Source: an uncultured candidate division Zixibacteria bacterium (GTDB taxonomy: Bacteria; Zixibacteria; MSB-5A5; SM1-73). From it: a stretch of 64,000 bases of DNA. The stretch is from contig CAIVRH010000023.1 in assembly GCA_903908285.1 (NCBI GenBank), forward strand, positions 25,052-89,051. Reading direction: 5' to 3'. The notes under the pieces are model-generated. The model did not search any database, had not been told where the DNA came from, and worked only from the letters and a program-made list of their open reading frames with translations. The translations under genes were made by a program, and so were the position numbers. Below, piece by piece: positions 4,917 to 25,437 of the stretch. Within the stretch, counting starts at the first letter, position 1, and every line of letters starts with the position of its first letter.

Positions 4917-5456
4917 TCAAATCGGGAGTTTGAGCACAATCCTCATAGTAATCCCACCATTAGCTTCAGGAATCAGACTAATAGACAAATCCCTCACCTT
5001 TTCCTGGTCGAAATGATACAGCTGGGCATCCACGTAGGCATCGAACATGCTCAGGAAAACCACTCCGGCAGTGATCCACAAGAAAAGATTTCTTCTGTCT
5101 TCATAGAATCTGTATTGATCGAATTCCCAATAGCGGTCCGGGTAGCTGGGATTTTGGAAATTCTTTTTATGCGGGCTCATCCGGCTCCAATCTACAGCCG
5201 CCAAGGTGATGAAAGTTGCCTCCGTCCCAAACACCACTATCCCCTTAAGATACTTCCGGTTGTAGAATTGGCCTCCCCCAGGAAAAACCACGGATCTTAG
5301 AAGCGCCCCGGTGGGAGATTTTCCTTTCATCAAAGTATCCGGCTCGGAAACCTTCGCTTTAGTCGAATCCTGGCTGGTTTGACCAAAGCTGTGATTATTT
5401 GGAAGAAATACTAACCAGCAAAAACTTAAGAACAAAAAAGTCAGATACTTCATCAT
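4917..5456 (-). CDS. DUF5683-family secreted/membrane protein
   Basis: Signal peptide (MMKYLTFLFLSFCWLVFL), FPGGGQFYNRKYLKG matching the DUF5683 PGxGQxYNxKYxK signature, and a C-terminal TM segment. Confidence 0.6.
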   Translation of the reverse strand: MMKYLTFLFLSFCWLVFLPNNHSFGQTSQDSTKAKVSEPDTLMKGKSPTGALLRSVVFPGGGQFYNRKYLKGIVVFGTEATFITLAAVDWSRMSPHKKNFQNPSYPDRYWEFDQYRFYEDRRNLFLWITAGVVFLSMFDAYVDAQLYHFDQEKVRDLSISLIPEANGGITMRIVLKLPI

Positions 5457-5778
5457 ACCTCTAAGTCCACGAGCACTAAAGTTATTCCCAATAAAGCATC
5501 AACCAAGATAAAAATAGATGCAGGAGAACACAACAATTTTCTTGAATTTATAATTCCACTGATTAATATTGGTATGATGATGCAAAATTTAAACTCAGAG
5601 ATTGTCAGTCCATTAAATACCTGGGTACTTTGGGTAGATTGTCCATTCGGATTCGTTGGGTTATCATCTTTAGAAAAATGACAAGAATGGGTTCGTCTCT
5701 TTTAGCTATAAACAACGGATGATAACATTCACTTTGAGCAAGTAATCGAGAAATAGAACTGATTTACAATTCTTTCAA

Positions 5779-7299
5779 ATGAGCAAAAACATATCCCTGG
5801 TGCAATCGAACGGTAAAGGCGATTCTCACTTCAGAGAATATGTGTTTATCGTTTGTGCCGGGCTTTTAGTTTTTTCACCTAGCTTATTTAACTTCTTCAA
5901 CTCGGATGACTTCGCGTGGATAAGTCGCGGGGCTAATCTATCTTTGAAGGATTTGCTGCATAATGCCGAAAGCGTAAGCTATAATAGATTTCGTCCATTG
6001 GTTCCAGTTTTTTTCGCCATTTTATACCGATTATTCGGATTGTCTCCCTGGGGATATCATTTCTGCAGTATAACACTACATGTATTCAATGCTCTGCTAT
6101 TCTATCGCTTAGTTTTACATCTCTTTCTTAACAAAGAGATCGCTTTTCTATCCGCTGTAATATTTGTCACCCATTTTGCTCATGAGGAAACGGTTTTCTG
6201 GATATCCAGCAATTGTATCCTATGTTGCTGGTTTTTTTCCCTGTCATCTCTTTTAGGCTTTATAAAATGGTTAAAAAGCGGAAATAGCTGGTTTTATTTT
6301 CTATCCCTGGGTTTGGTCACCATGGCATTCTTTTTCAGGGAGGACGCATTGATTTTACCTTTGATTCTCTTACTGATTATTGGATTTAGGTTTTCACGAT
6401 CAAATCGAGAGACTGCCAAGAACTTCAATCGCAGCTCATTGTCAAAGACCATACTAAGTCTGGTACCATATTTCCTCTTGATACCTATCTATCTGTATCT
6501 GAGAAGAATTTGCTTCCCACATCTTCAATTTATTGGGCTTTTGTCTTTTAATCCCATCAATTTATTAAGAAACTCTGTTTATTTCATTCTTAATCTTACA
6601 TTCCCGGTGAGACTAATTTTCGATGTGCTGGGATATCAACATTCTGGAACAATAAATCTCATGGTTAACAGTATCCGCTCTGACTGGATAATGGCCATAG
6701 CCGGTCTATTGGTAGTAGCATTTTCGGTTCTGGTTTTCTGGTTGTGGTTAAAAAAGGGGAGCAGGGTTTTGAAGCAATTGACCATGGTGTTTATTCTTTT
6801 CCTTTCGCCAAGTCTTCTCACCATAGGATATGGGCTCAGATTCACCTATATGCCTCTATTGGGATTCGCCCCGTTGGCAACTTATTTTATACTTTACCTA
6901 GTTAAACAAGCCAATAAAAAGAAACTAATGTTAGGAAGACATTATATGATTATGCTTATACTCGTAATTTTAGTTTTCAATTTCCTTATTTCATTTGAGC
7001 GACAGCAGTGGTGGAGAGAAACAGGAGGTATCTGCCAGAAAACAATAGCCCAAGCGGGAACGGTCTTGTCATCTCTGCCTGAAGGCTCAACCGTCTGCTT
7101 CCAGGATTTGCCCACCCGATTACATGGTGCTTACATTTTCAACAACGGCTTTATTGAGGCTATGAATTTATATTATCCCTCGTATAACCAGGCGATAGCC
7201 ATAGGAGACAGCAGTAGTCCTTGTTTACAGGATAAAGAGGTGGGGAAAAATCAGCATGGATTCAAATATGACAACGGTGGATTTTTTCAGTTATTTTAA
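5779..7299 (+). CDS. polytopic membrane protein, GT-C-fold glycosyltransferase-like (PMT/ArnT-like)
   Basis: >10 predicted TM helices. Acidic loop motif NSDDFAW after TM1 and FFREDALILP as in GT-C (PMT/ArnT/YfhO-type) enzymes. Family assignment is tentative. Confidence 0.4.
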   Translation: MSKNISLVQSNGKGDSHFREYVFIVCAGLLVFSPSLFNFFNSDDFAWISRGANLSLKDLLHNAESVSYNRFRPLVPVFFAILYRLFGLSPWGYHFCSITLHVFNALLFYRLVLHLFLNKEIAFLSAVIFVTHFAHEETVFWISSNCILCCWFFSLSSLLGFIKWLKSGNSWFYFLSLGLVTMAFFFREDALILPLILLLIIGFRFSRSNRETAKNFNRSSLSKTILSLVPYFLLIPIYLYLRRICFPHLQFIGLLSFNPINLLRNSVYFILNLTFPVRLIFDVLGYQHSGTINLMVNSIRSDWIMAIAGLLVVAFSVLVFWLWLKKGSRVLKQLTMVFILFLSPSLLTIGYGLRFTYMPLLGFAPLATYFILYLVKQANKKKLMLGRHYMIMLILVILVFNFLISFERQQWWRETGGICQKTIAQAGTVLSSLPEGSTVCFQDLPTRLHGAYIFNNGFIEAMNLYYPSYNQAIAIGDSSSPCLQDKEVGKNQHGFKYDNGGFFQLF

Positions 7300-14006: not shown

Positions 14007-14882
14007 TTACGATCCACAGGGAGGCGGTCCACCTCTGAACAGATAATTGATCGAATAGACTATATCTCCAATATCGACTCTCCCGTCGCAGTTGGCATCA
14101 CCCACCAGCCCCAAAGAGAGAACAGGGACAGTGATCCTTCGGGAGGGGGGAGTGCCGTCTGCGCAGTAGGCACTGATGAGCATGAGCGAATGGGAGGGAG
14201 GGATTTCGGTAATAGAGAGAGAGTGAGGGGTTCCATTAGCCGTCTTATTAAAATATAGGGTTGCCAACACACCGGTGGTTCCGGAATCGATCGGTGTTAT
14301 CCCAGTAAAATTGGCGCGAGAGGAGATGAGAACGGTCTTCTCCGTGTTATCGATACGAACAAGATTCTGATCCGGATTCCAGCTTGATGGAATTATGCTT
14401 CCGTAGAAACTCACACTGTCTAAAGTTACCTCAACCTCACCGGGTTGATCGGCATAGCTTAAAGGTATCACGAACCCCACTAAATCCGGTCCCTCATTCA
14501 ACAATATTTTGACACTGATGGTATCGGTAGGGCCGGAAGCCATAGGAGAAATCAAGTCTGAAGACAATAATATTTTACTGCCTAACTTTACGGAGGTTCC
14601 GGAGTAAGGAATAAGACTGCACCCGGTATAACAGTAACCGATTAGTTGCATTACATCACCCATATTGATACCCGAGGAGCCATCCACATCAGCATCAATA
14701 GGATTGACAGGAGGGGGTGAGTTCTTGTAAAGATAATTTATCAGGTAGACTATATCACCGGTCTCCACTGTGCCACTATTATTAATGTCTCCAGGAATGG
14801 CGGATACCGGTGTAACAAACAAACCGCACCAAAACATGGCTAAAAAGCCACAGAAGACTAAAGAAACTATAAGCTTTTTCAT
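14007..14882 (-). CDS. secreted double-dockerin-like protein, paralog of 12441..13355
   Basis: Same architecture and ~50% identity by eye (MKKLxxxLVFCGF..., GDIVYLINYLYKN, GINMGDVMQLIGY, C-terminal GDANCDGRVDIGDIVYSINYLFRGGPPPC). Confidence 0.6.
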   Translation of the reverse strand: MKKLIVSLVFCGFLAMFWCGLFVTPVSAIPGDINNSGTVETGDIVYLINYLYKNSPPPVNPIDADVDGSSGINMGDVMQLIGYCYTGCSLIPYSGTSVKLGSKILLSSDLISPMASGPTDTISVKILLNEGPDLVGFVIPLSYADQPGEVEVTLDSVSFYGSIIPSSWNPDQNLVRIDNTEKTVLISSRANFTGITPIDSGTTGVLATLYFNKTANGTPHSLSITEIPPSHSLMLISAYCADGTPPSRRITVPVLSLGLVGDANCDGRVDIGDIVYSINYLFRGGPPPCGS

Positions 14883-18192: not shown

Positions 18193-18321
18193 TTGGCTCC
18201 TCCTTGTGATTTCTCTAATCCCCCTAAATCCCCCTTTAACAAAGGGGGATTAAAATCTTCCTTTTTACCTGAGACGGGATATATCATTGTGCCAACTTTT
18301 GACAACCAAATCCACAGATAA

Positions 18322-18358
18322 AAAAATACCCTTCCTCGGTTTTTCTGAGGAAGGGTAG
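18322..18358 (-). terminator. rho-independent terminator ending the 22585->18461 minus-strand operon
   Basis: aaaaaaataCCCTTCCTCggtttttctGAGGAAGGGtag: 9-bp GC-rich stem, with a T-run on the minus transcript. Confidence 0.65.
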
Positions 18359-18460
18359 TTATTTCAATTCGTATTATTTTCATTTTACCTTTTCTAGCTT
18401 CGCCGAACTAGATTAAAAGGCTCTTCGGTTGTACCTAATCTATTCAAGGATTCTTTCTTG

Positions 18461-19309
18461 TCAAGTATTTTTTTGGAGTGTTTCCAGCCAATCTAAATGG
18501 TAGTGAAGAAGATAAGTTTTTACTGCTTCCTTTTTTCCTTTGTATGAGTCTCGAAGGTCATTTACATAATTATCAACAAGCGGAACAATTCCTTGGTCTC
18601 TTATCTCAGACCGTTTTCGACCCCAATTTCCAGTTGGTTTGAGACATCCCCTGCCTCCTCTAAGTATCCAAGCCGGATCGTTTATAATCTTAACTTTCAA
18701 TCCTTGTTCTTCGAGAAATCTAACATGGCGACCTTGAAATGTTATTATAATTGATGGTTTTAATTCCTTTAGTTCCCTCAAAGCAAGTTCATCATTAAGT
18801 TCCCAATATTTTTCCGGTGATTCGAGATGGTTAGGATTTATATCTATTTTCTTGTGAAGAGAGAATTTGTAGTAATTTGAAACTGCAACATGGTCTTGTA
18901 CTTCGTTAAAGGTCGAATATTTCTCTTGGGATATAGAATAAATTAATACACCAGCCAAAGCAGGCAGAACCCCTCCTTGATAAGGAGCAATTGCGATTTC
19001 AGAAAAGTCCAAATCGTTTTCTGGATATTTTCTCTCAAAACCAGGGCAAGAATAATAAAGTCTTTCTACCAGTTTATCGAAGTTTTTTGAGTATAGTTCT
19101 CTGAGGGATAATTCGTTCAGGCTGAAAGGGATATTCTGTGCTGTGGCATAAATGAGAATTCTGTATCCCTCATAGTTTTTGCCAACAAACGGGATATAAG
19201 GAGGAAAAAACTGACCATCATCAGTTTTTGTAGATAATAAGTCAGCATATTTTGATAAATTTCTTAAGTCCCAATTTTGGAACTCTGTGATAAGACTTTT
19301 TATATCCAT
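18461..19309 (-). CDS. hypothetical protein, last gene of the candidate gasdermin-protease operon
   Basis: 282 aa, no signal peptide, no confident domain (only a faint resemblance to UDG-superfamily-like folds). Same strand, 99 nt after the protease gene. Confidence 0.35.
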   Translation of the reverse strand: MDIKSLITEFQNWDLRNLSKYADLLSTKTDDGQFFPPYIPFVGKNYEGYRILIYATAQNIPFSLNELSLRELYSKNFDKLVERLYYSCPGFERKYPENDLDFSEIAIAPYQGGVLPALAGVLIYSISQEKYSTFNEVQDHVAVSNYYKFSLHKKIDINPNHLESPEKYWELNDELALRELKELKPSIIITFQGRHVRFLEEQGLKVKIINDPAWILRGGRGCLKPTGNWGRKRSEIRDQGIVPLVDNYVNDLRDSYKGKKEAVKTYLLHYHLDWLETLQKNT

Positions 19310-19408: not shown

Positions 19409-20779
19409 TTATTCTTGACGATTTTCTTCCTTCTTAGTCATCGCCACGGTCGATCGAAAAACAGTCGACACCAACGGATGTTTATATGCATCCGATCCCA
19501 AAAGTCCAATATAGTAAGTGGCTAAAAACCAGGTCCAGAGCCGGAGACCGGGAGGCAGCGAATTTACGATCTCCAGATACTTCTCATCGAATTCCTCGGG
19601 CGGAGGTAAATAAATGGACAGTCCTTTTGGAAGATAGGGATTGTCGGGCACTTCGCTTGCCACCAACAATCCGGATCGGTCGAAGAAATCCAACCATGCC
19701 TGCGCTGATTTTTTCACCTCTGCCGGGAACGTTCCCTCCCGAAGTCCGCCAGCGAAAAGCTTCAAGTCTATAAAACCTTCCTTAAAGGAATAGGTACCTT
19801 CAATGCAGGTTTTGATTCTCTCCACACCATCTGAGGCGACGTAAGCGGCCAATACTCTGGCTAAATTCTCCGTCAGATTGATAAAATCCGGGAACCGGTT
19901 GCAATCAAATGCCACTTGCGTAATAAGAAGATCGGTATCGGATTCGGAAGAATTTCCGTAGGATCTCTTCGTTTCTCTTACCAACTGCTCCGCAAGCTGG
20001 ACTGAGTCTTGACCGGGACTGCTTTTTAGTTTTTGCAGTATTTTATCATAAGGATAACCGGTGCCGGGTTCCTGGTTCTCTGATGCTATAAGTATTTTTG
20101 TGAAATCATACCAGGAAGAAAGTGCCTCCAGATTGCCCATGTTGCAAGCATCCAAAGCCATAATATCGAACTTAGACCACTTGTATTTATCTTCCGGATT
20201 CAAGCGCTTCTTAAGCTCCGGCAGCGACTGTTTAACCAGATCCGCAAGTTGATGGCAATAGAGGGCGGGATCGCCGGGCGGCATTGAAATGGCATTACGC
20301 TTAAGGTATTGTCTCCAGGTGAAATCATCTTGAAGAACCCCCTTCCAGCCAAAGCCATGACCGGATAATATCAAAAGTCTCCTTTCTGCCGGGAAAAGGA
20401 CGGTATGGTCGAGGATAATCTCTTTTAAAACCCTTTGGTCGATACTCCACAAATCCGTAAATCGAGCGATAAAATCGTCTTCCAGCTCAGTATCTTGGTT
20501 TAACCGGGCAAAAAAGGAATCGGTTAATAGAGGACCATCGAAGAGGACACAGATGTTAACATCCGGGTTAGAGCCGATCGCCTTCATCTCCATCAGGTCA
20601 TCAAACAAATATTCAGCTAAATTGCAGTCCGCTGCCATATAAACCAGAATAGTCCATTTAGCCACATGGTTGATTGAGTCTAAGTTGGTTTTTGATATTT
20701 GAAAGGTAAAATCCTCGGGAGACAATCGTACGGTCTGGGGCAATCCTCCCCGATAAGGATTCCCGCTTTTAAATAACAT
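19409..20779 (-). CDS. clostripain-like (peptidase C11, clan CD caspase-fold) cysteine protease, cytoplasmic
   Basis: WTILVYMAADCNLAEY (C11 N-terminal block), ILSGHGFGWKG (catalytic His-Gly) and IMALDACNMG (catalytic Cys, DAClM motif). No signal peptide. ~200-aa C-terminal extension of unknown function. Confidence 0.6.
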   Translation of the reverse strand: MLFKSGNPYRGGLPQTVRLSPEDFTFQISKTNLDSINHVAKWTILVYMAADCNLAEYLFDDLMEMKAIGSNPDVNICVLFDGPLLTDSFFARLNQDTELEDDFIARFTDLWSIDQRVLKEIILDHTVLFPAERRLLILSGHGFGWKGVLQDDFTWRQYLKRNAISMPPGDPALYCHQLADLVKQSLPELKKRLNPEDKYKWSKFDIMALDACNMGNLEALSSWYDFTKILIASENQEPGTGYPYDKILQKLKSSPGQDSVQLAEQLVRETKRSYGNSSESDTDLLITQVAFDCNRFPDFINLTENLARVLAAYVASDGVERIKTCIEGTYSFKEGFIDLKLFAGGLREGTFPAEVKKSAQAWLDFFDRSGLLVASEVPDNPYLPKGLSIYLPPPEEFDEKYLEIVNSLPPGLRLWTWFLATYYIGLLGSDAYKHPLVSTVFRSTVAMTKKEENRQE

Positions 20780-20939
20780 TGCCTCCTCCTTTTATGCTTT
20801 TTACGAGTAATTCCCATTAAGAGGGTTTAGGGAGTAGAGTGTACCCGGGGTCAAGTTATCGGATGAATGATTGCCCGTATTTCTCAGATCATTTCTCTCT
20901 ATATCACCAGATGCTTTGAATCCCCATCCCTTCAAACCC

Positions 20940-21752
20940 TCACCAAGAATCCAGGTCGATCAATTCATTCTGTGCCAGCAGAACCTCCTGCCGCGGTTTT
21001 TCCCCACCGGCTCCTTTCATTACCAGGTTATCTGAGTCCATCTTCAGCCGAAAATGTGCTTTTCCCTGAACATCCTCCTCCACCCAAAAAGAAGCTGCCT
21101 TGAAGCCGAATTTCAAGAACTTGTTCCCTTGATAAGATACTTTTGCAGTTTCGTCCTTGGAGACTTTTATCCCTCCCGTTCCCCCAAACAGGCTCTGGAT
21201 TCCCTTAACGTCGAGGTCCAGCACCTGCTGGCTGGAATTGTAAGCGATCACTCCGAACGAGTTGGATTTGATGGTTTCGGTTATGATATGCGCCTCGCCT
21301 TCCTCATTGATGCATTCCATCAGAAGGGTGTTTGTTTTGGGCTTGGCGGAGGACAGGTAATCGTCGATGGCCGTGATGAAGACCGAATCGGAGAGTACGT
21401 TCTCAAACACGATCTCGATCTGAACCGCCTTTTCGTAGCCGGCATTCAGTTTTCCGGAAGCCGCACCCATAGCGGAGAGATATTTATTCATCAGATCCAT
21501 GCCCAAGCGTGAATCCAGCTTGCTGGTCCTTTTACTGGTAATTTTGCCGGCGGTCTGATCATATTTGATTGGAGGAACGGATGCGGATTCTTCCACAAAA
21601 TGGGATAAGGGTCCCAATATCTCTAATTTCTTCTTCTTTCCTCCGATGATCAACAGCGGCTCGACATTCTCCCTGGGAAGACTTATTACATTGTAACCCA
21701 AGTGATTCAGATAGGTGAGCGAATCGTCTTTGCAAAACATGATTTCCTCCAT
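20940..21752 (-). CDS. candidate bacterial gasdermin (bGSDM)-like pore-forming protein
   Basis: ~266-270 aa. From the second Met (21740) the protein starts MFC with Cys at position 3. LNHLGYNVISLPRENVEPLLIIGGKKKK resembles the gasdermin N-terminal L..G..IPV.SL....F.P..LVVRK motif. Beta-rich composition. Sits immediately upstream of a caspase-fold protease. Arg 16 residues from the C-terminus (EKPR|QEVLLAQNELIDLDSW). Confidence 0.5.
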   Translation of the reverse strand: MEEIMFCKDDSLTYLNHLGYNVISLPRENVEPLLIIGGKKKKLEILGPLSHFVEESASVPPIKYDQTAGKITSKRTSKLDSRLGMDLMNKYLSAMGAASGKLNAGYEKAVQIEIVFENVLSDSVFITAIDDYLSSAKPKTNTLLMECINEEGEAHIITETIKSNSFGVIAYNSSQQVLDLDVKGIQSLFGGTGGIKVSKDETAKVSYQGNKFLKFGFKAASFWVEEDVQGKAHFRLKMDSDNLVMKGAGGEKPRQEVLLAQNELIDLDSW

Positions 21753-21784: not shown

Positions 21785-22108
21785 TTAGATTAATGCCAGC
21801 AGCCTATCAATTATGAGCTTGGTAATTCCATTGGCGAGGCTTTGTGCTCGTGCCCTGGCCTCGACTTTCATTTTAAGCGTTTGCATCACCGAAAGATCTC
21901 GGATATCGCCGACATATCCTTCAAATTGTTCCTTGGTTATCAGACCCATAGCCAGCTGGTTTAGGTATATCTCCAATTTTTCCCCCTGTCTTTGGATGAA
22001 CTCCTCCGAATCCGCTTTGGCATCACTGACCAAGTTCTTGAGTTCATCCTTTGCCAGTTTGCCGCTGTCATCTTTCAATCGGTCCAGCCAATCCTCCCAT
22101 GCACTCAT
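21785..22108 (-). CDS. small helical hypothetical protein (107 aa) in the gasdermin-like operon
   Basis: Coding-like acidic/helical sequence. 32 nt upstream of the gasdermin-like gene and 12 nt downstream of the lipoprotein gene. Confidence 0.4.
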   Translation of the reverse strand: MSAWEDWLDRLKDDSGKLAKDELKNLVSDAKADSEEFIQRQGEKLEIYLNQLAMGLITKEQFEGYVGDIRDLSVMQTLKMKVEARARAQSLANGITKLIIDRLLALI

Positions 22109-22120
22109 ACTTGTTCCCTC

Positions 22121-22585
22121 CTATTCATTCTTGTTTTTAATTCTCTCGGTCTGAATGGCGATGTCGAATGCTTCCGTCAGGTTTTGCTTCTGGTTACTCA
22201 AATGGGTTGCGCTCCATTTTCCATTTTTCATCCGGTCATCCACATGTTTTTCAAACAGATTCCGGAGGATCTTGATCTGCTCAGAAGTTTCCGCATTCTT
22301 CTGGCCCTTTCCATATTCATATTCGTACATCTGGGCGAGTTTAAGACGAAGACCGGCAATCTGGCTGGAATTCAAGGAATCGGTTGCAAAACTGTCATAC
22401 AGAGCCAGGATTTCGGGTTTCAGGTCGGTTAAGTTTTTATAGGTGACCGGATCATAGTAGGTGACGAATCCTAACTGGTGAGCGCAGCCACATAGACTCA
22501 GCCAGAAAAGCAAAATAGCCGCCACTTCCAGCTTCCGTCGAAAGACCTGCTCTACGGCATGAGTCCTAACGAAAGGGATCCCCAT
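22121..22585 (-). CDS. putative lipoprotein (154 aa), first gene of the operon
   Basis: Signal peptide with Cys (LLFWLSLCGC). A promoter-like TTGACA-17-TATGGT lies on the minus strand at ~22700-22735. Confidence 0.45.
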   Translation of the reverse strand: MGIPFVRTHAVEQVFRRKLEVAAILLFWLSLCGCAHQLGFVTYYDPVTYKNLTDLKPEILALYDSFATDSLNSSQIAGLRLKLAQMYEYEYGKGQKNAETSEQIKILRNLFEKHVDDRMKNGKWSATHLSNQKQNLTEAFDIAIQTERIKNKNE

Positions 22586-24876: not shown

Positions 24877-25437
24877 ATGGGCACGCAAAGAAAATATCCA
24901 TTACGCAATAAAATAGTGGTAGTCCCTATGGGGGACATCGAATATTCTTTTGTCAACAAGCTGGCTTCGCAATTGGTGTCATTCTTTAATATAGGAGTGG
25001 ATATTCTACAAGGGGCGAAGATTCCTCCGGAAGCATTCAACCAGCAGAGGGGGCAGTACTATTCTACCGTGATCTTAAGCAAGCTGGAGCTGATGAAGTC
25101 TTTATCGGAGGAGAAAATGTTAGGCCTGGTGGATGAGGATTTATATGTGCCCACGAAAAACTATGTGATCGGGGAGGCAGATGCGGCGGGCAAATGCGCG
25201 GTGGTGTCTTTGTTCCGTTTAAAGCGCGAAAATTATGAAATGCTGGATGAGGAAAAAATACTGTATGCCCGGACGCTCAAGGAATCGGTCCGCCTTTTGG
25301 GGCATCTTTTGGGTTTTGAAAACTGCCGCAATGCCAAATGCGTTATGTACCTTACCGACAACGTGACCGAGGTGGACCAAAAAGGAACCAAGTTCTGCGA
25401 TAACTGCTTGAGGAAAGTCAAAGTCTGGCACGGGTAG
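24877..25437 (+). CDS. archaemetzincin-like protein (AmzA family) with a degenerate HEXXH
   Basis: GHLLGFENCRNAKCVMY...(16 aa)...CDNC matches H-x-x-G-x3-C-x4-C-x-M-x17-C-x-x-C, but the expected HE is RL (RLLGH). Confidence 0.5.
   Translation: MGTQRKYPLRNKIVVVPMGDIEYSFVNKLASQLVSFFNIGVDILQGAKIPPEAFNQQRGQYYSTVILSKLELMKSLSEEKMLGLVDEDLYVPTKNYVIGEADAAGKCAVVSLFRLKRENYEMLDEEKILYARTLKESVRLLGHLLGFENCRNAKCVMYLTDNVTEVDQKGTKFCDNCLRKVKVWHG

Follow-up and report, generated by a model that had tools for sequence, protein, structure and literature searches.

A clostripain-family (C11) protease encoded next to a bacterial gasdermin: a probable two-gene suicide module

From bacteria to humans, pyroptosis has as its conserved core the activation of a gasdermin by a neighbouring protease. 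For the 50 bacterial gasdermins (bGSDMs) of Johnson et al. 2022 the protease partners are Caspase/C14, CHAT, Peptidase U49, subtilase and trypsin-like enzymes, and alpha/beta-hydrolase and metallo-beta-lactamase (MBL) effectors that are gated by adjacent proteases were described recently (PMC12642450). Here we have analysed a stretch of 64,000 nucleotides, below called the window, from contig CAIVRH010000023.1 of an uncultured candidate division Zixibacteria bacterium, in which a gasdermin gene lies directly upstream of a gene for a cysteine protease of the C11 (clostripain) family. The terms 'C11', 'PF03415' and 'clostripain' are absent from the supplementary tables of Johnson et al. 2022, and searches for gasdermin together with clostripain or C11, and for clostripain together with phage defence, found no relevant literature, with incomplete coverage, so that an earlier description is possible.

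We consider it likely that the two genes form a gasdermin suicide module, in which the C11 protease removes a 24-residue peptide after Lys242 of the gasdermin and thereby frees the pore-forming body. That the protease is a gasdermin activator had been put forward in an initial annotation of the window, and this idea is well supported by the conserved adjacency of the two genes in unrelated contexts, by a natural fusion, and by the match between a basic P1 residue in the gasdermin and an aspartate in the S1 pocket of the protease. The elements of the module, in coordinates of the window and with the codons of the key residues checked, are the following.

19409..20779, minus strand: cysteine protease of 456 aa (plus stop) from family C11 (clostripain family, clan CD), within a rare clade of leaderless enzymes (from PF03415, AlphaFold2 (AF2), Foldseek and a hidden Markov model (HMM) of the clade)
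20357..20359, minus strand: catalytic His141 (SGHGFGW)
20144..20152, minus strand: Asp210-Ala211-Cys212, with catalytic Cys212 and S1-pocket Asp210
20780..20939, minus strand: spacer of 160 nt separating the two genes, with the ribosome-binding site of the C11 gene
20940..21740, minus strand: bacterial gasdermin, 266 aa plus stop, directly upstream of the protease (PADLOC bGSDM 5e-64; NCBIfam prok_gasdermin 4.6e-51)
21732..21734, minus strand: gasdermin Cys3
21012..21017, minus strand: predicted scissile bond Lys242-Gly243 (LVMK/GAGG) of the gasdermin, a conserved K/R-G/A in a disordered segment
20943..21014, minus strand: aa 243-266, the 24 C-terminal residues, predicted to act as an inhibitory peptide in the manner of the short one known from bGSDMs

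The reading frame of the protease starts at the ATG that follows AAAGGAGGAGGCA, and in-frame stops are present upstream. Peptidase_C11 (PF03415) matches residues 46-310 with 108.6 bits (E 6.6e-31, cut-off 25.8) and is the only family detected in a Pfam scan at E<=1, in which PF00656 (Peptidase_C14) and PF12770 (CHAT) were not matched. The initial annotation was thus right in calling a clan-CD protease of family C11 with three sequence blocks, which are located at aa 46-57 (VYMAADCNLAEY), 139-144 (SGHGFG) and 210-215 (DACNMG). None of the protease models in PADLOC and PHROG matched the 456-aa protein, and the NCBIfam clostripain equivalog TIGR02806 gave 41.2 bits, far under its cut-off of 550 bits. 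Judged by its sequence, the protein is a member of the C11 family and not an orthologue of clostripain.

Both members of the catalytic dyad are invariant in the 59 homologues. His141 aligns to the histidine of SHGDGW / SHGTGW in the structures 6n9j and 6mzo, and Cys212 to that of FDACYM in the same two structures; Asp210, present in 58 of the 59, and Cys212 are the counterparts of Asp177 and Cys179 in PmC11. An aspartate in S1, two residues ahead of the cysteine (Asp177 in PmC11, Asp229 in clostripain), confers specificity for Arg/Lys (PMC4850288), and from Asp210 the same P1 preference is predicted here. The AF2 model of the protease, built from the 59-sequence alignment, has a predicted local distance difference test score (pLDDT) of 93 and a predicted template-modelling score (pTM) of 0.92. 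When the model was submitted to Foldseek only C11 structures were significant (clostripain 9cip, 6n9j, 6mzo, 6nag and PmC11 3uws), with the best matches, 9cip, 6n9j and 6mzo, at E 1e-14 to 1e-16. The alignments comprise 388-455 columns for the four full-length chains and 251 for the 3uws fragment, at a sequence identity of 13-18%. Of these, 6n9j and 6nag are Bacteroides enzymes, and 6mzo is a Parabacteroides zymogen.

For the gasdermin, the true start is the second ATG (21740), which is preceded by GGAGGA at a distance of 5 nt, agrees with public gene calls of 266 aa, and gives an N-terminus MFCKDD with Cys3. This cysteine is at least 90% conserved in the homologue alignment, and its position is the one that is palmitoylated in characterised bGSDMs. 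The AF2 model of the gasdermin (pLDDT 82.7) matches the inactive Vitiosangium bGSDM 7n51 in Foldseek with a TM score of 0.84. No terminator was found between the two genes; the weak stems listed fall inside open reading frames (ORFs) and are at chance level. At most other loci the spacer between gasdermin and C11 genes is 10-20 nt.

The protease belongs to a clade that is rare and sharply bounded in sequence space. A first homology search returned about 59 full-length relatives (33-72% identity, 93-100% coverage), after which the E-values dropped from 1e-67 to 1e-23. The clade HMM was bimodal on 170 fetched loci, with full-length clade members above 440 bits and all other C11 proteins below 171, and among the 19,871 C11-like proteins in 1.84 billion protein representatives only about 16 full-length clusters (at 50% identity) fall in the clade. 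A gasdermin HMM matched no ORFs other than those directly 5' of clade members and on their strand. Such a gasdermin gene is present in 11 of the 27 distinct clade lineages for which upstream sequence was available, as opposed to 0 of the 128 C11 loci outside the clade (Fisher p = 6e-10). The hosts include Omnitrophota, Bacteroidota, Acidobacteriota, Eremiobacterota, Syntrophobacterales and several Proteobacteria, and the genes that flank the pair are not the same at each locus (they include ferredoxin oxidoreductase, riboflavin, pyrimidine, permease/transporter and other genes). In the clade tree the gasdermin-linked members are scattered. A search from the gasdermin side gave an additional pair, with homologue P0257 followed by a 457-aa C11, and six further gasdermin homologues on contigs equal in size to contigs with C11 matches, for which co-location is likely from contig size. 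The closest distinct relative (L090, 4865-5667), whose C11 is 72% identical, has a gasdermin that one frameshift splits into pieces of 137 and 96 aa and that keeps a VVLK/GKE site; the gene is a pseudogene, unless the frameshift is a sequencing error.

The two proteins also occur as one. In L170 (Logan ERR15087771, 4685 bp) a single ORF of 728 aa at 547-2733 comprises Bact_GSDM (PF26164) and a clade C11, and no other domain. The fused protein keeps both an NLIMR/GENAG site and the GNPY start of the protease; it is a Rosetta-stone fusion with one occurrence.

The gasdermins linked to C11 proteases keep a basic residue (Lys or Arg) with Gly or Ala after it, at 24-30 residues from the C-terminus, in the variants VMK/G, AMK/G, VMR/G, LAR/G, VAK/A, VSR/A and IAR/A, with IMR/G in the fusion. 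In the model of the window gasdermin residues 236-250 are the sole internal segment with pLDDT below 50, and Lys242-Gly243 is in the middle of this segment. Past residue 250 the confidence returns to 75-76, and a beta-strand (260-265) packs onto the core. As modelled, linker and C-terminal strand have the layout expected for a short inhibitory peptide carried on an exposed linker. The L099-101 lineage is the sole gasdermin-linked lineage with Met at P1 (L099, L100 and L101; gasdermin 5217-5990, C11 6001-7311), and only there is Asp210 replaced by Asn (MNAC for DAC), with the 234-242 loop remodelled as well. This covariation of S1 and P1 is suggestive of a compensatory change, as a single evolutionary event and not in a statistical sense. 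Gasdermin homologues without a basic P1 residue (P0261, P0256) precede Peptidase_S8 genes, not C11 genes. Taken together, the basic P1 residue in a disordered gasdermin linker, Asp210 in S1 and the compensatory pair support cutting of the gasdermin by the C11 protease.

How far the protease departs from ordinary C11 enzymes can be read from its architecture.

20669..20779, minus strand: clade-specific N-terminal segment, aa 1-37, in place of the signal peptide of secreted C11s; pLDDT 88-96
20153..20356, minus strand: segment from His to Cys (aa 142-209), which exceeds that of PmC11 in length and has a long helix predicted at 171-191
19505..20050, minus strand: C-terminal domain of the canonical C11 type (about aa 244-425), largely helical; GLSIYLP motif at aa 386-392 (from profile and fold)
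19412..19504, minus strand: clade-specific C-terminal helical tail, about aa 426-456, with model helices 410-433 and 435-455

Residues 1-42 of the protease are conserved and hydrophilic, and there is no hydrophobic stretch at the N-terminus: over the first 70 aa the 15-residue Kyte-Doolittle mean peaks at 1.12, on the first beta-strand. Hydropathy therefore agrees with the initial annotation that a signal peptide is lacking, but the trait is not unusual, since the alignment of many generic C11 homologues, too, starts at their residue 2-5 and at profile position 38-40. What does set the clade apart is the segment itself, with the consensus ML..GNPYR.GLP..L.L...DF.F.IS..N..A and near-invariant Y9, P14, L19, D23, F24, S29, N32 and A35, whereas generic C11 proteins align from profile position 38 only. 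These 37 residues are possibly a latch or regulatory element. PmC11 requires cleavage at Lys147, 14 residues past its histidine (PMC4850288). Candidate autoprocessing residues in the His-Cys segment of the window protease are K146, R156, K160 and R161, and no basic residue after the histidine is invariant among the 59 sequences (K/R in 42/59 at position 146, 33/59 at 156 and 36/59 at 163). At positions 174 and 181 of the same segment Cys is found in 34 and 48, respectively, of 59 clade members; the window protein has Tyr and Leu there, and a Cys at 175.

The second half of the chain had been described initially as an unrecognisable extension of about 200 residues that could sense infection. 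It is instead the normal C-terminal domain of the family, aligned by profile and fold to about residue 420, with 411-455 columns in the Foldseek alignments to C11 structures, and the predicted structure is the canonical C11 fold with no novel domain. Profile positions 196-392 align to residues 148-338 of the 369-residue chain of 6mzo, positions 200-393 to 5dyn_B, and positions up to 414 to clostripain; the C-terminal domain of 6n9j is also reached, and the motif GLSIY(A/L/V)P is common to the protease and the aligned solved enzymes. When proteins were searched exhaustively with the profile, C11 members of the ordinary single-domain type (some 400 aa) spanned positions 38-422 unbroken, and generic C11 matches ended at profile 420-430 or so. 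In PmC11 the family's C-terminal domain is a helical bundle that starts from Lys250 (PMC4850288). The clade-specific parts of the protease are accordingly residues 1-37, the longer His-Cys segment with helix 171-191, and the final helix (about 426-456) only. Sensor-type or CARD-like domains (repeats, NACHT, CARD) were looked for in the protease and none was present; the C11 fold and short termini account for the whole chain.

From these data we propose the following course of events. The gasdermin would be made in an inactive form, probably lipidated at Cys3, with its last 24 residues folded back on the pore-forming body via the flexible linker. The cytoplasmic C11 protease is most likely an auto-inhibited zymogen, by analogy with other C11 enzymes, in which the 37 N-terminal residues peculiar to the clade, the long segment between His and Cys, or both may serve as a latch, fired by an infection cue. 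The active enzyme, with its His141/Cys212 dyad and acidic S1 pocket (Asp210), would then cut the linker after Lys242 (VMK/GAGG). With the inhibitory peptide released, the gasdermin could oligomerise into membrane pores and kill the cell, and the outcome, if the analogy with characterised bacterial gasdermin systems holds, is most likely abortion of a phage infection. For this anti-phage role we rely on homology to characterised gasdermin operons, on the fast evolution of the pair and on its patchy distribution.

The clade has other partners as well. In L004 (3355-7356), L019, L020, L022 and L104 the C11 gene is 3' of a Peptidase_C14 gene and a gene for an alpha/beta-hydrolase-like protein of about 294 aa with an HSLG motif. 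In L016 (1780-7338) it comes after genes for an MBL-fold protein and a C25-like protein of 1022 aa, in L017 (3637-7347) after a 749-aa subtilase (S8), and in L092 (3429-5466) after a 217-aa predicted membrane protein. The Bacteroidota members L006, L011-L013 and L094 are orphans in conserved metabolic contexts. These neighbourhoods hint at effector swapping or at protease cascades. As a tentative extension, and one for which we would not claim much probability, the leaderless clade might be a free-standing, re-usable executioner, whose own latch (aa 1-37 and the His-Cys insert) reads an infection cue directly, without an NLR or repeat sensor. It would have been paired repeatedly with a gasdermin, an alpha/beta-hydrolase, an MBL-fold hydrolase or a small membrane protein, in a two-tier cascade from initiator to executioner where a caspase-like or subtilisin protease is co-encoded.

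Several observations weigh against the gasdermin module as we propose it. A gasdermin is lacking in 16 of the 27 clade lineages, and because clade members are orphaned or lie 3' of C14 plus hydrolase, MBL or S8 genes, the clade is not dedicated to gasdermins. The covariation of pocket and site comes from one lineage only, and the fusion, which may be due to the loss of a stop codon or to faulty assembly, from a single 4.7-kb contig. We infer, rather than observe, the cleavage and its exact bond, the toxicity, the zymogen control, the trigger and the anti-phage role. With no invariant basic autoprocessing site and no sensor found, the control step is speculative. Finally, no defence island was found at eight loci (the window, L001, L003, L009, L014, L015, L018 and L100), and since the flanks are housekeeping genes the case for phage defence leans on the characterised operons. 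The same finding is what favours a role other than phage defence for a genuine pair, such as lysis linked to stress or development, release of contents or particles, or an addiction-type module. Next to the pair are pyrimidine, riboflavin, ferredoxin-oxidoreductase and transporter genes, with no defence genes at the loci examined, and a related CARD-NLR-like immune system, reported together with gasdermin systems, has been tied to gene-transfer-agent release (PMC13236601). We regard such a role as unlikely, on balance. That the adjacency is incidental, and the C11 protease a housekeeping or degradative cytoplasmic peptidase with no relation to the gasdermin, would fit the orphans in conserved metabolic contexts of Bacteroidota (L006, L011-L013, L094). 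It is nevertheless extremely improbable in view of same-strand adjacency within unrelated flanks in 11 lineages versus 0/128 other C11 loci (p = 6e-10), of the fusion, of a basic P1 residue that is matched to Asp210 and has a compensatory change, and of the lack of the site in subtilase-linked gasdermins.

Two further explanations concern how the protease itself would be switched on. It could be an executioner that is activated by an unlinked sensor protease (caspase-like or subtilase), with the initiator encoded elsewhere than in the window. Clade members located 3' of C14 and hydrolase-like genes (L004, L019, L020, L022, L104), of MBL and C25-like genes (L016) and of an S8 gene (L017) are in line with this, protease-effector modules with such effectors are documented (PMC12642450), and C11 enzymes become active by cleavage (PMC4850288). 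On the other hand, no protease but the C11 enzyme lies near the gasdermin in the window or in 10 or more further lineages, the natural fusion has two domains only, and no conserved basic processing site was found, which makes a cascade of this kind rather improbable. The remaining possibility, that the C-terminal 200 residues or so form a novel, appended domain through which infection is sensed and the protease licensed, draws on the lack of a separate Pfam match in the C-terminal half (the Pfam C11 match stops at residue 310) and on the clade-specific helices of the last 30 residues or so; a regulatory role of the domain is also conceivable, as in PmC11 it touches the helix beside the autoprocessing loop (PMC4850288). 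However, residues 244-420 (approximately) align to the C-terminal domains of 6mzo, 6n9j, 5dyn and clostripain, GLSIYxP included, and the fold agrees. The region is moreover common to C11 enzymes with no link to gasdermins, ordinary C11 proteins cover profile 38-422, and a domain that is present in all solved C11 structures does not support the sensor suggested initially, so that we find this explanation highly doubtful. Activation of the gasdermin by its adjacent C11 protease is the reading that we prefer.

The remaining features around the pair in the window are listed below.

14007-14882, minus strand: secreted protein with two dockerin-type repeats (PF00404), flanking the region
18320-18424, minus strand: PyrR-binding RNA (RF00515; 55.8 bits, gathering threshold 54) at the start of the pyr operon pyrR-pyrB-pyrC
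18461-19309, minus strand: 282-aa ORF between the C11 gene and the pyr leader, no family match
21785-22108, minus strand: 107-aa helical protein just upstream of the gasdermin, no family match
22121-22585, minus strand: 154-aa protein with a lipoprotein-like N-terminus (LSLCGC), tightly coupled to the 107-aa ORF, no family match
24877-25437, plus strand: Peptidase_M54 (archaemetzincin-like) protein, flanking the region

The 282-, 107- and 154-aa ORFs had no match in Pfam, PADLOC, NCBIfam, PHROG or the PDB sequences. They were considered as components of the system and rejected, being present only in near-identical relatives and missing from L009 and all other loci. The PyrR-binding RNA contains a strong 13-bp hairpin (18327-18357). 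Locus L009 shares the order of the window (ABC ATPase, gasdermin, C11, pyrR, pyrB, pyrC). Between the two, PyrR is 85%, PyrB 84% and PyrC 75% identical, compared with 55% for the gasdermin and 57% for C11, so the gasdermin-C11 pair evolves much faster than its neighbours.

If our proposal is true, a clostripain-family partner adds a second clan-CD family to the gasdermin proteases, and C11 enzymes, so far studied as secreted proteases of gut bacteria and clostridia, gain an intracellular role with a single substrate. At 266 and 456 aa and without a sensor domain, the system would be very small. Its scissile bond is predicted precisely, and the change of Asp to Asn with Lys to Met offers a natural pair for a switch of specificity. 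The system bears on the co-evolution of protease and substrate, on how a protease without a sensor is restrained, and on the trigger, and through the other latent effectors of the clade it connects to the emerging modular death effectors that are gated by proteases.

Compared with the systems of Johnson et al. (Runella bGSDM with CHAT; Lysobacter bGSDM with trypsin-like proteases and an NLR-like ATPase), the window has the same protease-adjacent gasdermin of about 266 aa with Cys3, and the same short C-terminal inhibitory peptide, with activation predicted to occur by removal of some 20-25 C-terminal residues. It differs from them in that the protease is a C11 enzyme with no TPR, LRR, WD40, NACHT or CARD module, and in its predicted Lys/Arg at P1, where Leu247 was reported for the Runella bGSDM. 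With PmC11, clostripain and the Bacteroides C11s (3uws, 9cip, 6n9j, 6mzo) the protease shares the dyad motifs, the S1 aspartate, the caspase-like sandwich with a helical C-terminal domain, and GLSIYxP. Unlike PmC11 and clostripain it is leaderless and starts with a conserved segment of 37 residues; the stretch from His to Cys is longer, and a further helix is present at the C-terminus. Its predicted setting is intracellular with a dedicated substrate, whereas clostripain-type C11s are secreted and degradative. The modules of PMC12642450 likewise consist of a latent death effector that is unlocked, as we predict here, by site-specific cleavage by a neighbouring protease. The proteases there are trypsin-like, caspase-like or S8 enzymes fused to sensors, with C11 unmentioned, while a sensor-less C11 and a gasdermin effector are found here. 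The logic and the effector are thus known ones, combined with a protease family that had not previously been tied to gasdermins in the literature searched, with a predicted basic P1 residue, and with no sensor module.

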